Of a DNA stretch of 60,086 nucleotides, positions 237 to 5,154 are shown one piece after another. Source of the DNA: Poseidonia sp. Lineage in GTDB: Archaea > Thermoplasmatota > Poseidoniia > Poseidoniales > Poseidoniaceae. The stretch is from the NCBI GenBank assembly GCA_030827475.1, contig JAUREJ010000009.1, positions 1 through 60,086 of the forward strand, given 5' to 3'. Each line of letters opens with the position of its first letter. Position 1 is the first letter of the stretch. The notes below the pieces were generated by a model. The model searched no databases and was not told the origin of the DNA. It saw only the letters and a program-made list of their open reading frames with translations. A program made the position numbers and the translations under genes.

Positions 237-1031
237 CTAAGCGTAGGATTGGCTGTTGATGACGTCTTGGAGTTCGATGACTTTGGTGCCTCGGCCTTTG
301 GCGTGGTCCGCCGCACGGGTCAAGCGAGAACGCATCCAACCCAAGGTCATCATGCCCTTCATGGCGTTGATGGATTCAATGAAGTGCACGGGGTTGCTGC
401 CCAATTGTGCGTGGTTTCGGATGTCTTCCTCAAGGTCCTCGAGGACCTCAGCGTAGAGGTCCAACAATTCGTCCAAAGCCTCTCGCGTCACCGCCATGCC
501 AGCGATGCTTTTGGCCATCGCAAGCAGCGCCGTAGGTGTCACCAAACCACCGGCTTGACTGGCAACAAATTCTTCCGCCGCACTCAAATCGTCGTCCCCG
601 TCATCGCCGTCATGCTCATCGCTGGGGGAGGTGTTCAGGACCGCACGGTCCAGATGACGGGGTTTAATGGTCGCCACGCGGTCACGTTCGGCCGCTTCGG
701 AGGCATGACGAAGCAGTTGGGCAAGGTGCTGTTCGAGATGATCGATACCAGCTTGGACGGCAGCAGAACCCACGGAATCGACGTGCTCAATGCGGTCGAT
801 CATCAACTCTCGGGTCCGGTTGTAGTTCAAGCGGCTGCGTAGAGGGTCGTCAAGCGTCTTTCGCTCGGGGTCTTGGGAGAGAGTTTGGGATTCCATTTGG
901 GGCACGAGCCGGTCAAGCTCCTCGCACAGCAAGGTCACCAACCGGTCCTTGACCTCCCCCGAGAGTCGCATGGTCGTGTAGTGGGCGGAAACGGCGGCAA
1001 TGTGGCTGGAGGAGTACGGTTTCGCGACCAT
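237..1031 (-). CDS. Multi-histone-fold protein (three tandem histone-fold-like units)
   Basis: Central unit RLNYNRTRELM...VGSAAV...ASEAAERDRVATIKPRHL follows the HMf-type pattern. Similar L1/L2 motifs occur in MRLS...ERKTL and MAVT...GTKVIELQDV. Confidence 0.7.
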   Translation of the reverse strand: MVAKPYSSSHIAAVSAHYTTMRLSGEVKDRLVTLLCEELDRLVPQMESQTLSQDPERKTLDDPLRSRLNYNRTRELMIDRIEHVDSVGSAAVQAGIDHLEQHLAQLLRHASEAAERDRVATIKPRHLDRAVLNTSPSDEHDGDDGDDDLSAAEEFVASQAGGLVTPTALLAMAKSIAGMAVTREALDELLDLYAEVLEDLEEDIRNHAQLGSNPVHFIESINAMKGMMTLGWMRSRLTRAADHAKGRGTKVIELQDVINSQSYA

Positions 1032-1083: not shown

Positions 1084-1347
1084 TTACTCGGTGAGACCGT
1101 CGTCCCTTCCCATCACCTGGTTGAATTCCCAAGCGTGGAGGCATTCGTGGCCACCGAGGAAGCCACCGGCCTCTCGGGAGGGGCCGATGAATTCTGCACC
1201 GCACATCGAACAGAAGACGTTGACCACGAGTTCGTTGTAGTATGTGCCGTTGGGGGTTTCCCGTTGAGGAATGCGCTTACCGACATCCTCGCGGGTCCAT
1301 CCCGATGTTTTATTGCAGATCTCTTCTCCGTGCGCGTCTTGTGTCAT
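1084..1347 (-). CDS. Small C2H2-like zinc-finger protein
   Basis: CSMC-x17-HECLH. ATG at 1347 overlaps the peptidase stop (ATGA). Confidence 0.6.
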   Translation of the reverse strand: MTQDAHGEEICNKTSGWTREDVGKRIPQRETPNGTYYNELVVNVFCSMCGAEFIGPSREAGGFLGGHECLHAWEFNQVMGRDDGLTE

Positions 1348-2624
1348 GCATCCCACTCCATCAGCCAAGGCAAACCACCGTCGGCGGTGAGCGGGCGCAT
1401 GCCGTCTTCGTCACGAACCCACGTGTCCTCGGTGCCGACGGTCCCCTCGCCGTAGACCACTTTCGGCTCAATCGCCATCGTCCCGCCCACCGGCAGTGGA
1501 CGGTCAAATCCAGCGGCCACGACCGGGGATTCATCGAGTTGGAGGCCGATGGAATGGCCCAAAAAGCGGCTTTGGTCGGGCGCTGCCCCCATCAGATGGT
1601 CGGCGTACCCCAATTCGGTCGCCAGCGCAAGACCGGCTTGCCATGCATCGCTGCAGTTCAAGCCCTGGTCAAGCACGTCAACGACTTCTTCCTTCACCAG
1701 CATCATGTCGTCAAGACGGGTTTGCCAGACCTCGTTCAGGCCGCCAACCGCAAACATGCGGGTGGCATCCACCATGTAGCCGCGGTGAGCGTGAACGAGG
1801 TCAACGAGCACCGGCTCGCCCCGCTTGACACGGGTGAATCCTGAACCCATTCCTCCAAGCGGATGTGGGCCTGTCCCGCCAACGGCGGAATCAAAGAAGG
1901 ACGGAATGCCGCCGGCTCGTCCCGCGACGATCACGCCACGGTCGCATTGCAGCGGATAGCGACGCATCTGCACGCTGCCCCCAAAGCCTTCGCTGCGGCT
2001 CACGGCTTCTGCGGCGGCCACCATGTCCAGTTCACTCACACCCTCACCGCCGATGGCCTGGACCGCCTCAAACATGCGAAACTGCACGGCGGCTCCGGTT
2101 TCCATCTGCTCCAGTTCCCATGCGGATTTGATTTCCCGCTGACGGTGAACCGTAGCGGTAACATCGCCGGCCTCGCCCAAGGAGGCCAAGGCGGAAGCAA
2201 AGCGAGCCGTAAACGAGCCCGGCGCCTCACCAAACTGCAGCCCAGGGGAAGCGGTGACGCCCATCTCGCCGAGCGTTTGGGCCAGTGTAGAAAGCCTTGG
2301 GAAGGCCGTCACTACATGCGGTGAATCGTCGCCGCCCGCTTCCCAAACCGCCCGCTTCAGCGAACGACGAACAAAGGCCACGGGCCCGTCGCCGCCGGCT
2401 TCCTCGCTGCCTCCAGCGCCCTTGGCGGGAACGAACAACGAGCCGTCCTGACGTCCCCCTGCATAATAGTACAGGTCGACGGGGTGTTGGATGAGCGCCC
2501 CTGGCAACCCAGCCTCGGCCAACATGGCACCCAAGCGACGTTGGCGAGCCTCGAGTTCGGCCGCAGGGACCCGCCAGTCCTCCCCATCGGGGCCAACGAT
2601 ATCGGCGGGGGACCAAGTGGTCAT
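1344..2624 (-). CDS. Xaa-Pro aminopeptidase/prolidase (M24 family)
   Basis: Creatinase-like N-terminus, REIKSAWELE, and metal ligands VLVDL, YMVDATR, GHSIG, AIEP, TEDT. Confidence 0.9.
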   Translation of the reverse strand: MTTWSPADIVGPDGEDWRVPAAELEARQRRLGAMLAEAGLPGALIQHPVDLYYYAGGRQDGSLFVPAKGAGGSEEAGGDGPVAFVRRSLKRAVWEAGGDDSPHVVTAFPRLSTLAQTLGEMGVTASPGLQFGEAPGSFTARFASALASLGEAGDVTATVHRQREIKSAWELEQMETGAAVQFRMFEAVQAIGGEGVSELDMVAAAEAVSRSEGFGGSVQMRRYPLQCDRGVIVAGRAGGIPSFFDSAVGGTGPHPLGGMGSGFTRVKRGEPVLVDLVHAHRGYMVDATRMFAVGGLNEVWQTRLDDMMLVKEEVVDVLDQGLNCSDAWQAGLALATELGYADHLMGAAPDQSRFLGHSIGLQLDESPVVAAGFDRPLPVGGTMAIEPKVVYGEGTVGTEDTWVRDEDGMRPLTADGGLPWLMEWDA

Positions 2625-2676
2625 GGTCGTGGGTGGCGGGCAACCGTTCAAAACCCGTTCGGCCGGCTTGCCCGCA

Positions 2677-3633
2677 TCATATGCGTATCGTCTCTAGCGA
2701 GACTTCGGCCACGGTCGCCAACCGCTCCTCGGCAATGCTGCAATACGCGGGAGAAAGGTCGACCCCGATGTAGGTGCGCCCGTGCATCTTTGCAGCCACG
2801 CAGGTGGTGCCCGAACCGTTGAACGGGTCGAGGACGACGTCGCCGGCAAAGGTGTACATTTCGATGCATCGCTTGGGCAACTCAACGGGGAACGGTGCAG
2901 GATGGTTCACCCTTGAAGCCCGCTCGGTAGCAAACGACCAGATCGACTTCGTGTGTTGAATAAAATCGTCGCGTGGAATCGTGTCCAAGCGACCCTCAGT
3001 TCGTTGAGCTTTGGTACGGGGCAATTTGTAGTCGCCTTTGGAAAACACGAGCAAGTATTCGTGCACGTCGCGAAGACAGGGGTTGGACGCCGATTGGAAC
3101 GAACCCCACGCACAGGAGGACCCTGCGCTGGCGGATTTGTCCCAGATGATTTCACCTCTCATCAAGAAACCGATTTCACCCATCATGACGTTGATGTGCG
3201 AAGACAGCGGAATGTAGGGTTTCCGTCCAAGATTGGCCACGTTCACGACCATGCGACCGCCCGGCGCAAGCACGCGGTAACATTCGGCAAACACATCGTG
3301 GAGCAGGGCCAAGTATTCGGGCAACGAGAGGTTTTCATCATACTCTTTGGAAGCGTTGTAGGGCGGCGAGGTGACGACGAGGTGAACGCAGTTGTCAGGA
3401 AGCGGCAGGGTTCGCGCATCACCGCAAAGGACGCTGTTCGCATAGGCGGTCGGCAAGGCCTGCTCCGAGCCAACTTCGCGCGAACTCACGAGGTCTTCGT
3501 TAAGCCGACTGGTGTAGTACACGCTGGCGTCGTGGCCTTCACGACGGGACACCCCAAAAGCCGACGTTGCGGTTGAAGCCCGGCGACGAGCACCTTCCAA
3601 AGGTGCAGGCTCTTGGGGCGGTTCATCGGCCAT
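2677..3633 (-). CDS. Site-specific DNA methyltransferase, N4-C/N6-A, beta class (orphan)
   Basis: Motif IV VTSPPY precedes HPAPFP and motif I VLDPFNGSGTT. No restriction endonuclease is adjacent. Confidence 0.92.
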   Translation of the reverse strand: MADEPPQEPAPLEGARRRASTATSAFGVSRREGHDASVYYTSRLNEDLVSSREVGSEQALPTAYANSVLCGDARTLPLPDNCVHLVVTSPPYNASKEYDENLSLPEYLALLHDVFAECYRVLAPGGRMVVNVANLGRKPYIPLSSHINVMMGEIGFLMRGEIIWDKSASAGSSCAWGSFQSASNPCLRDVHEYLLVFSKGDYKLPRTKAQRTEGRLDTIPRDDFIQHTKSIWSFATERASRVNHPAPFPVELPKRCIEMYTFAGDVVLDPFNGSGTTCVAAKMHGRTYIGVDLSPAYCSIAEERLATVAEVSLETIRI

Positions 3634-3891
3634 GGAGGCCAAGGGGTTCGCTGGCCTTATCACCTTTCGCGCCCGGACCGGGGGCGAGACGCGCGTCTAC
3701 GCACCCCATGAGAACCGCCAATGCTTGACGTTAGGACTTCGACGACCTGTCCACGGAACAATAAGCGCTTTGACGTGCCATCAAGGCGACGCCATCGCCC
3801 CCGTCGGGCCGATTGACGCTCGACCCTGCTGAGGTCCAGGGGGCGTAAGGCAGAGCGAGGGATGAAAAACCGACAGCCTCTCGGAGAGCCA

Positions 3892-5154
3892 ATGGCAAAG
3901 GTCCTGTCCTTGGACGATGTCAAGGTTGACGGGAAAACCGTCTTGCTCCGCGTTGACATCAACAGCCCCCTCGACCCTGCCACGAAGACCTTCTTGGACG
4001 TCACACGAATACGGGCCATTCTGCCCACGCTCCAAAAGTTGTCCAAAGCGAAGGTCATCCTGCTCGCCCACCAATCCCGGCCGGGTCTCGACGACTTCAC
4101 GAGCACCTTGGGCCACGCCCGTGAACTGGGTCGGCTTCTCGGCCGTCAAGTCAAATGGGTGGAGGACATTCACGGGGAAAAGGCCATGAAAGCCATTGAA
4201 GCGCTTGAAACTGGTCAATTGTTGATGGTGAACAACGTCCGAATGGACGAAGAAGAAGTGACGGTCAAAGGTGATTTGACGGCGATGGCCGACACCCAAC
4301 TGGTTCAACGTCTGGCGAGCGTCGCCGATATGTACGTCAACGATGCGTTCGCCTGTGCCCACCGCTCAACGCCTTCCATCGTCGGCTTCACGAGCCTGCT
4401 GCCCTGCGTGGCAGGCGAGTTGATGAACAACGAATTGAGCAAACTCGATCAGGCCTTGGAATCCCCAAAACGCCCGTGCCTTGCCGTGTTGGGCGGTGTC
4501 AAAGTTGACGACTCCATCGAGGTCGCCGAGAACATGTTGCGTAACGGTATCGCCGATGCGCTGTGGCCCACCGGCGGCGTGGCCAACTTGCTGCTCGACC
4601 TGGCCGGTTATGACATCGGTGAAGGCAACCGGAATTTTCTCAAATCCCAAATCGGCAAAAAGTGGCCCGAAACCGTCCGAAGAGCCCGAGAACTCATCGA
4701 AGACCACGGCAACAAAATTCACCTTCCCGTGGACGTTGCCGCCAACATCGAGGGGAACCGAGTGGACCTTTCCATCGATGATTTTCCACTCGATGCCCCC
4801 TTCCACGACCTTGGTCTGAAGTCCGTTGTCCACCTCTCCACCGCCATCAAACAGGCCGGCACCGTCATCCTCAACGGCCCTGCCGGTGTCTTTGAGAACA
4901 ACGATTTCGCGCTCGGCACTGTCGAGATGTTGAATGCATGCGCGGAATCCTCGGCCTTCACCGTCATGGGCGGCGGCCACACCGCCACGCTGGTCACCAA
5001 GCGGGGGCTGGCGGGCAAGATGGGTCACGTGTCCACCGGCGGTGGTGCTTGTTTGGATTACATCGCCGGGCGACCGCTTCCCGGTGTCGTGAGCCTTGAA
5101 CAAAGCGCCGTAGCGTTCGGCATTGACATCAAGGCCGGACCTCGCAAAGCGTGA
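3892..5154 (+). CDS. pgk: Phosphoglycerate kinase (archaeal type)
   Basis: LRVDINSP, AHQSRPG, YVNDAFACAHR, LGGVKVDD, NGPAGVFE, HVSTGGGA. Confidence 0.97.
   Translation: MAKVLSLDDVKVDGKTVLLRVDINSPLDPATKTFLDVTRIRAILPTLQKLSKAKVILLAHQSRPGLDDFTSTLGHARELGRLLGRQVKWVEDIHGEKAMKAIEALETGQLLMVNNVRMDEEEVTVKGDLTAMADTQLVQRLASVADMYVNDAFACAHRSTPSIVGFTSLLPCVAGELMNNELSKLDQALESPKRPCLAVLGGVKVDDSIEVAENMLRNGIADALWPTGGVANLLLDLAGYDIGEGNRNFLKSQIGKKWPETVRRARELIEDHGNKIHLPVDVAANIEGNRVDLSIDDFPLDAPFHDLGLKSVVHLSTAIKQAGTVILNGPAGVFENNDFALGTVEMLNACAESSAFTVMGGGHTATLVTKRGLAGKMGHVSTGGGACLDYIAGRPLPGVVSLEQSAVAFGIDIKAGPRKA

Follow-up and report, generated by a model that had tools for sequence, protein, structure and literature searches.

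How many histone folds are contained in the long acidic protein encoded at one end of a Poseidonia sp. contig, and what might such a protein do? The gene lies on the minus strand, at 237..1031 of a stretch of 60,086 nucleotides of contig JAUREJ010000009.1 (assembly GCA_030827475.1), to which we refer as the window. According to the list of open reading frames (ORFs) and their translations, it is a real ORF and a complete coding sequence of 264 amino acids (aa) plus stop. It is present as one copy in a genome that is 87% complete, where no second match to the histone family PF00808 exceeds the cut-off, making it the sole histone-fold gene found there. The protein is a member of a long acidic histone-fold family of Poseidoniales that is already published (as 'cluster 5') and functionally uncharacterised. 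On balance, and with modest confidence, we take it to be an accessory DNA-binding architectural protein that would act beside MC1 and not as the main packager, and in which a fused histone doublet is followed by a collapsed second doublet.

Membership of a published histone-fold family

In a Pfam scan the 264-aa protein matches PF00125 (E-value 0.0024; 18.6 bits, cut-off 26.4) and PF00808 (E 0.089; 13.5 bits, cut-off 21.4), in both cases over aa 62-131 and below the cut-off. A single-sequence phmmer search of the Protein Data Bank (PDB) returned only H2A chains, with E ~1. A word-indexed search, in which 3151 candidates with lengths of 145-462 aa were compared, gave 342 homologues at E<=1e-3; among the 120 matches listed, the length is nearly always 259-281 aa, and the source names of some include 'histone H3/H4', Candidatus Poseidonia and Poseidoniaceae. 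An exhaustive phmmer search over 1.84 billion cluster representatives yielded 73 matches at E<=1e-3, and none of these is an ordinary singlet histone. The family is well conserved inside the order, with 50-97% identity among Poseidoniales members.

An alignment of 43 family members (A2) was the basis of the residue counts, the family-profile search and the hhalign comparisons reported here. At E<=0.01, PF00125 matches 37 of the 43 members and PF00808 matches 13. Searched against 177,635 PDB sequences, the A2 profile matches HmvA, an archaeal histone (8bdk, E 8.5e-7), as well as chains of H2B-H2A.Z (E 1.6e-6), and all of these matches are located within the second histone fold.

The original prediction, made from the DNA letters alone, suspected that a survey of prokaryotic histones might already list related proteins, and one does. 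'Histone diversity in the archaeal domain of life' (Nat Commun 2026; PMC13260811) defines cluster 5, the 'acidic quadruplets', as proteins in which four histone-fold motifs are predicted. Table 1 of that paper gives 130 sequences with a median length of 262, an isoelectric point (pI) of 5.2 and a grand average of hydropathy (GRAVY) of -0.35, with which the values of the protein studied here (264 aa, pI 5.06, GRAVY -0.39) fit well. Cluster 5 is described as exclusive to Poseidoniales plus one related genome, and always as the sole histone gene. In the Source Data of the paper, the sequences labelled 'Single 5', the paper's representative included, contain the motifs 'RLNYNRTRELM' (103 occurrences) and 'TIKPRHL' (110 occurrences), and they share both their motifs and the arrangement of their parts with the 264-aa protein. 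In the main text of the earlier catalogue of Schwab et al. 2024 (PMC11390915), a term search found no mention of Poseidoniales or of triplet histones. With the family already in print, its description is refined here, not newly made; the refinements concern a truncated fourth fold with a C-terminal half read as a collapsed copy of the N-terminal half, relatives outside the order, absence of the gene from six genera, and good sequence conservation inside the order.

The N-terminal half is predicted to form a histone pseudodimer

The protein was described in the original prediction as three histone-fold-like units, the first without a clear third helix and the second complete. All sequence landmarks on which that description relied were located in the translation: MRLS at aa 21-24, ERKTL at 56-60, RVATIKPRHL at 118-127, DEHDGDDGDDD at 138-148, MAVT at 179-182 and GTKVIELQDV at 248-257. 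A whole-protein AlphaFold2 model, calculated from a 32-sequence alignment, has a predicted local distance difference test score (pLDDT) of 70 and a predicted template modelling score (pTM) of 0.46.

The model agrees with the description of the first two units. Fold 1 (aa 4-62; 846..1022, minus strand, as are all segments of the gene) consists of alpha1 (helix 8-15), loop L1 'MRLS' with a short strand (22-23), alpha2 (helix 25-53) and loop L2 'ERKTL' with a second strand (59-60), and has no alpha3; its assignment is based on the model, conservation and hhalign. Fold 2 (aa 63-135; 627..845), which contains 'RSRLNYNRTR' and 'TIKPRHL', is complete, with helices 70-80, 89-116 and 124-134 and strands 86-87 and 121-122, and is identified by the sub-cut-off Pfam matches, the family profile and conservation. 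The two folds are related to each other (hhalign E 1.8e-4), and fold 2 alone has a pI of 8.6.

A structural search with the model of aa 1-138 returned histone-fold pairs at all ranks from 1 to 33. The best superpositions are on 9cvt_D (Z 14.6, root-mean-square deviation (rmsd) 2.3 Å, 131 residues aligned), 7n8n_A (Z 14.0) and the Methanopyrus doublet 1f1e (Z 13.0, rmsd 2.4 Å, 126 aligned). These matches to single-chain doublets argue that units 1 and 2 form one internal pseudodimer, as had been proposed. The strand pairs in the model are placed at the positions expected for L1-L2 pairs, and aa 1-135 are thus predicted to have the alpha1-L1-alpha2-L2-alpha3 order and the handshake with two L1-L2 strand bridges, except for alpha3 of fold 1. 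Foldseek against the PDB gave no match at E<=0.001 for the whole model; the highest-ranking entries, with E between 5e-3 and 2e-2, were 1f1e and single-chain H2B-H2A.

An acidic linker in an acidic proteome

The acidic linker expected after unit 2 (aa 136-162; 546..626) is borne out by pLDDT, charge and variability. Residues 135-162 have pLDDT below 50 and look disordered, and aa 136-160 carry a net charge of -10. The linker is acidic throughout the family, yet its length and sequence vary. The segment that follows is acidic as well, with a net charge of -7 over aa 161-210.

These charges could point to an acidic chaperone or DNA mimic, in which the linker and the acidic first half of the C-terminal domain would bind basic chromatin proteins such as MC1, a gene for which co-occurs in the genome. 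We regard this role as highly improbable. Among the 44 ORFs of the window, the pI has a median of 5.28 and lies under 6 in 80%; therefore, a pI of 5.06 is the norm for this organism, which weakens the suggestion in the original prediction that acidity hints at a chaperone or a role away from DNA. MC1 is also retained in the genomes without the histone-fold gene that were checked (5 of 5; see below), so it does not depend on that gene, and a chaperone role would leave the conserved basic residues of the doublet unexplained.

The C-terminal domain is best read as a shortened second doublet

The third unit (aa 163-260) was originally described as a histone fold whose alpha2 is interrupted by about 30 extra residues. 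In the model it comprises helix 166-177, strand 180-181, helix 183-208, an extra helix 214-228, helix 231-246, strand 251-252 and helix 254-259. An interruption is indeed present, with a length of ~22 residues (209-230) instead of ~30. Modelled on its own (aa 155-264, 47 sequences), the domain is compact and closes on itself (pLDDT 81.5, pTM 0.72).

Comparison of the two halves of the protein suggests a different origin for the extra helix. With the A2 columns of aa 1-137 aligned to those of aa 160-264, hhalign gives a score of 44.4 (probability 93.6%, E 2.2e-7) over 95 colinear columns. Alpha1-L1-alpha2 of fold 1 pairs with aa 163-214, alpha1 of fold 2 pairs with aa 213-229, which contain the extra helix, and the C-terminal part of alpha2 with L2 and alpha3 of fold 2 pairs with aa 232-257. 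L2 of fold 1, and L1 with the early part of alpha2 of fold 2, have no counterpart in the C domain. Reversed profiles of the C domain and of the N-terminal half score 12.5 and 12.0, respectively, and none of 40 column shuffles exceeds 21.6. Fold 1 by itself aligns with aa 160-212 at E 6.3e-7 (probability 92%). The colinearity, and the position of the extra helix on alpha1 of fold 2, argue that unit 3 is a shortened copy of units 1 and 2, rather than one fold with an insertion.

On the sequence evidence, we thus prefer to read the C domain as a second copy of the doublet that has lost ~40 residues and in which one L1-L2 pair is left, equivalent to half a histone dimer. Part 1 (aa 163-210; 402..545) would be the remnant of a fold 3, with alpha1, L1 'MAVT' and alpha2, copied from fold 1, as indicated by hhalign and AlphaFold2. 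Part 2 (aa 211-260; 252..401) would be the remnant of a fold 4, with the alpha1-like helix 214-228, the C-terminal half of alpha2 (231-246), L2 and a short alpha3, as indicated by the colinear alignment. We propose that the whole doublet was duplicated, and that L2 of fold 3 and L1 with the first half of alpha2 of fold 4 were then lost; such deletions would leave five helices in a compact domain that has just one L1-L2 strand pair. The call of histone folds in the original prediction stands, and its count of three is one defensible parse of a doublet plus a collapsed doublet. Of the four motifs counted in PMC13260811, two are full folds in our analysis, and the C domain aligns colinearly to both, but the fourth has neither L1 nor half of alpha2. 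'Triplet' and 'quadruplet' are two parses of identical residues.

Some results weigh against reading the C domain as a histone doublet. The fold 4 half is weak by itself (fold 2 against aa 210-264 alone, E 0.003). A structural search with the C domain finds histone doublets (1f1e, with Z 8.9 and an rmsd of 3.5 Å across 100 residues; also 8uqe, 7n8n, 1q9c and 1wwi), which tie with the AAA+ lids of MCM, RuvBL, Lon and ORC (Z 7-8.9, rmsd ~2 Å over ~70 residues), and Z scores of 8-9 are in the range for which the search tool warns of common helical-domain matches. Foldseek with the C-domain model finds nothing in the PDB at E<=0.001 (best E 0.13), and a C-domain sequence profile (18 sequences) has no significant PDB match, the best being an unrelated GTPase (E 0.015), with HmvA at 0.074.

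The original prediction also reasoned that an odd-numbered triplet would leave one fold to pair in trans. In such an arrangement the C-terminal unit would open and pair with that of a second chain, giving a dimer with two N-terminal doublets that could bridge DNA or polymerise on it. The C domain does have a single L1-L2 pair, half that of a normal dimer, and AlphaFold3 predictions in PMC13260811 indicate that histone-fold-dimer-like conformations can arise in cluster 5 at the N terminus through contacts within a chain and at the C terminus through contacts between chains, which leaves room for pairing. An obligation to pair is not borne out, since aa 155-264 close alone and the turns between the helices are conserved. 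The conserved residues of the domain in Poseidoniales are mainly glycine, proline, tryptophan and hydrophobics that mark fixed helix turns, such as G211 (36/43), P214 (35/43), G231 (40/43) and W232 (37/43), and the turns at G211, P214 and G231 make a continuous alpha2 unlikely in this order. In addition, the closest compact matches are monomeric AAA+ lids. A homodimer prediction for two copies of aa 155-264 with alignment scored 0.02 against a mark of 0.42, an uncontrolled result that speaks neither for nor against pairing in trans. Taken together, we consider pairing in trans unlikely, and favour a C domain that closes within one chain.

Distribution, absence from six genera and relatives outside the order

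We analysed the occurrence of the gene in 201 genomes of the order and in a phylum-wide sample of 301 genomes, ~237 of which are of other families. Within the order the gene was matched in 130 of 201 genomes, including 97/99 in family f1, 2/2 in f2 and 30/99 in f3. Six f3 genera (Thalassarchaeaceae-type) gave no match to the gene (0/3, 0/13, 0/4, 0/15, 0/9 and 0/14; in total 0 of 58 genomes). The gene-less f3 genomes (e.g. G005-G043) include some that are 91-97% complete, one of them a single contig, and sister genera retain the gene, for example in 9/10, 9/12 and 4/4 genomes.

MC1 is encoded in the Poseidonia genome (95 bits, 88 aa, pI 10.5), and HU had no match there. An earlier survey of archaeal chromatin proteins (PMC7613761) describes the wider clade as one that lost its histones and reports MC1 in marine group II. 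In five gene-less genomes that were checked, MC1 is present in 5/5 and PF00808 is over the cut-off in 0/5. The Poseidonia genome also has an Alba homologue (L004, G000:C14:12087-15239; 50 bits, 106 aa from the first Met), with an acidic pI of 5.35 that is unlike that of the basic MC1.

Outside the order, full-length or near-full-length matches (E 2e-29 to 2e-74) were found in five genomes of 3.1-4.4 Mb from families f36 and f46 (G268, G273, G323, G338 and G344). PF00808 matches four of the five, each time inside the same gene; three of these matches are over the cut-off, and G273 has none. Folds 3 and 4 have no signature motifs in Poseidoniales and the C domain has no loop arginine, whereas the outgroup relatives have such motifs: in three of the four aligned outgroup loci (L021-L023 of L021-L024), the C domain keeps classic loop motifs that are lost in Poseidoniales. 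In distant relatives L2 of the C domain resembles a classic histone loop ('KKTI' or 'KKSI', with 'RGKKTIDVEE' at the fold 4 region), and L1 reads 'KKRI' or 'RKRI' in the A2 member P0189 and in L021-L023. In G273 (C2:55565-56272) the match is split into an N part (profile positions 2-133) and a C part (160-261) with one TGA, which could reflect breakage of the gene, natural splitting within the linker or a fault in the assembly.

A putative accessory DNA-binding protein

Using the signature motifs defined in section 10 of PMC13260811 (RKT[VIL] in L2, R[V] in L1 and the R-D clamp), fold 1 has an 'RL' L1 of the 'RV' type and an 'RKTL' L2 of the 'RKTV' type. The conserved residues are R22 (39/43) in L1 of fold 1; R57 (38/43), K58, T59 and L60 (42/43 each) in L2 of fold 1; R65 (41/43), R67 (39/43), R72 (43/43) and R74 (39/43, the remaining four having K) in alpha1 of fold 2; and T121 (43/43), I122, K123 and R125 (42/43 each) and H126 (43/43) in L2 and alpha3 of fold 2. 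L2 of fold 2 has T121, I122 and K123, with 'VA' where the motif has 'RK'; across the pseudodimer, T121 is available as a partner for R22. As read from the alignment, each of the basic residues located where canonical histones contact DNA is kept by 38-43 of the 43 members.

We propose that the N-terminal pseudodimer provides a working DNA-binding surface. Contacts would be made by R22 with T121 of the partner L2, by 'RKTL' of fold 1, by R65, R67, R72 and R74 in alpha1 of fold 2, and by K123 and R125. One unit would bind or bend a short stretch of DNA, without nucleosome-like stacks, and the C domain, which in Poseidoniales has lost its own loop arginine, may have become a module for structure, self-association or partner binding. 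On this reading, the role of the protein alongside MC1 would be that of an accessory factor, chromatin-related or architectural. The presence of MC1 in the genome, the absence of the histone-fold gene from the six f3 genera and the retention of MC1 in the gene-less genomes that were checked suggest such an accessory role.

Other features of the protein count against binding to DNA, or limit how firmly it can be asserted. The R-D clamp is missing, with H126 in place of the fold 2 aspartate; L1 of fold 2 has a serine (S86, 39/43) instead of arginine; and the four most distant A2 members have asparagine at position 22. The protein misses both Pfam histone cut-offs, the confidence of the whole-protein model is only moderate, and family members are known from sequence and prediction alone. 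AlphaFold3 and simulations in PMC13260811 gave no nucleosome-like complex for cluster 5, which according to that paper might not bind DNA and was perhaps co-opted. The gene sequence is found in contigs from 4/4 metatranscriptome runs, and hence is present in RNA libraries, but assembled contigs are silent on expression level, strand and DNA carry-over, and the parts that they leave uncovered are uninformative.

Co-option, as suggested in PMC13260811, could mean that the histone folds are kept solely as a protein-protein platform without DNA binding, as in TAFs, NC2 and the SOS histone domain. The same paper reports that cluster 5 has no four-helix-bundle assemblies and no conserved stacking glycine, that the classic signatures are largely in the first fold, and that no nucleosome-like structure is predicted with DNA. 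NC2-alpha (1jfi, E 1.5e-4), SAGA and TFIID subunits and SOS are among our sequence or structure matches, many genera of the order do without the gene, and the basic MC1 is at hand for packaging. The best-conserved surface residues, however, are basic and located at canonical DNA-contact positions, the acidic pI is the proteome norm, and fold 2 alone is basic. We therefore judge a pure scaffold to be rather improbable, and continue to favour the accessory DNA-binding protein.

A more specific version of DNA binding is conceivable, although we find it doubtful. The C domain may be a doublet that has collapsed to a pair of helix-strand-helix units, closed and monomeric; nature would here have reversed the domain swap that has been proposed to make the histone fold from an AAA+ lid. 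The Arg-Thr pair of DNA-binding loops may have moved between lineages, being N-terminal (R22/T121) in Poseidoniales and C-terminal in at least one distant relative (P0189, L021-L023 type; 'KKRI' with 'KKTI' or 'KKSI'). In that case, the protein would bend DNA beside MC1 as a histone-derived monomer, without wrapping.

Poseidoniales are among the most abundant planktonic archaea, and this family is their sole histone-fold protein. Possible DNA binding by the N-terminal doublet, the role of the shrunken doublet and the disappearance of the gene from some genera are all relevant to the reuse of histone folds in settings other than the nucleosome.

Genomic neighbourhood

Upstream of the histone-fold gene lies a small ORF (1084..1347, minus strand) encoding 87 aa rich in Cys and His, which has no Pfam match. 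Its end is 52 nt before the ATG of the histone-fold gene, and its own ATG overlaps the stop codon (ATGA) of an M24 metallopeptidase gene (1344..2651, minus strand; PF00557, E 1.5e-21). The M24 gene is a conserved neighbour: of 13 related loci (each with flanks of 1.5 kb only), 9 have it beside the histone-fold gene, and the small ORF occurs between the two genes in 3 of the 13, with 69-71% identity. A 1,475-nt RNA-library contig (run X6) covers 255-1729 and links the histone-fold gene to the small ORF and to the 3' end of the M24 gene, which would fit co-transcription but does not prove it. Two genes upstream of the histone-fold gene is a gene for an N6/N4 DNA methyltransferase (2677-3663, minus strand; PF01555, E 9e-50), and a phosphoglycerate kinase gene is located at 3862-5154 (plus strand).

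Elsewhere in the genome, a weak sub-threshold PF00808 match (L002, G000:C14:52829-52915) lies inside a long open frame and recurs in the three relatives L018-L020, with E 0.006-0.15 and frames of ~750-765 aa. This segment may be an AAA+ lid, which would fit the likeness between such lids and the histone fold.

Comparison with known systems

Nothing sets the 264-aa protein apart from cluster 5 as described in PMC13260811, with which it shares length, pI, taxon, motifs and sole-histone status. The nearest structural counterparts are the doublets of Methanopyrus kandleri (HMk, 1f1e) and of Melbournevirus (H2B-H2A; 9cvt and 7n8n), in which two fused folds likewise form an intramolecular pseudodimer. 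The model of aa 1-138 superimposes well on these doublets (Z 13.0-14.6, rmsd 2.0-2.4 Å), although sequence identity is just 14-18%. Unlike them, the protein lacks alpha3 in fold 1 and continues into a second, degenerate doublet, and no four-helix-bundle or nucleosome-like complex is predicted for cluster 5 (PMC13260811).

Singlets of the HmvA (8bdk) and HMfB type resemble the protein in the profile match to fold 2, in 'TIK.R' in L2 of that fold, and in 'R[LIV]' in L1 and 'RKT[LI]' in L2 of fold 1. In contrast to these singlets, the protein is fused, long and acidic, has an invariant histidine in place of the clamp aspartate, and is below the PF00808 cut-off. Eukaryotic H2A also has 'PRHL' after L2, as does fold 2, and alignments span 'VG..A...LE...A..L..A..AA......I.PRHL..AV.N', with family-profile E-values of 1.6e-6 to 2e-3 for H2A and H2A.Z chains. 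The protein has neither the docking domain nor the tails of H2A. We considered a special kinship of fold 2 with H2A and dropped it, since HmvA is matched with equally good scores. Among the bacterial histone-like doublets of DUF1931, 1wwi superimposes on the N half with Z 10.7 and on the C domain with Z 7.8, and PF09123 is found in 1 of the 43 members (E 8.1e-4).

The AAA+ lid and the histone fold share a helix-strand-helix unit (Alva et al., PMC1847821). With one L1-L2 pair kept, equivalent to half a histone dimer, the C domain would therefore also resemble an AAA+ lid, and it superimposes on those of RuvBL, MCM, Lon and ORC with an rmsd of 1.8-2.2 Å. Pfam models of lids match few A2 members (Cdc6_lid 2/43, AAA_lid_14 1/43 and the LonB lid 1/43), and no ATPase family matches the 264-aa protein at E<=10. 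In contrast to AAA+ proteins, no ATPase core precedes the C domain, which by sequence appears to be a copy of the neighbouring histone doublet.

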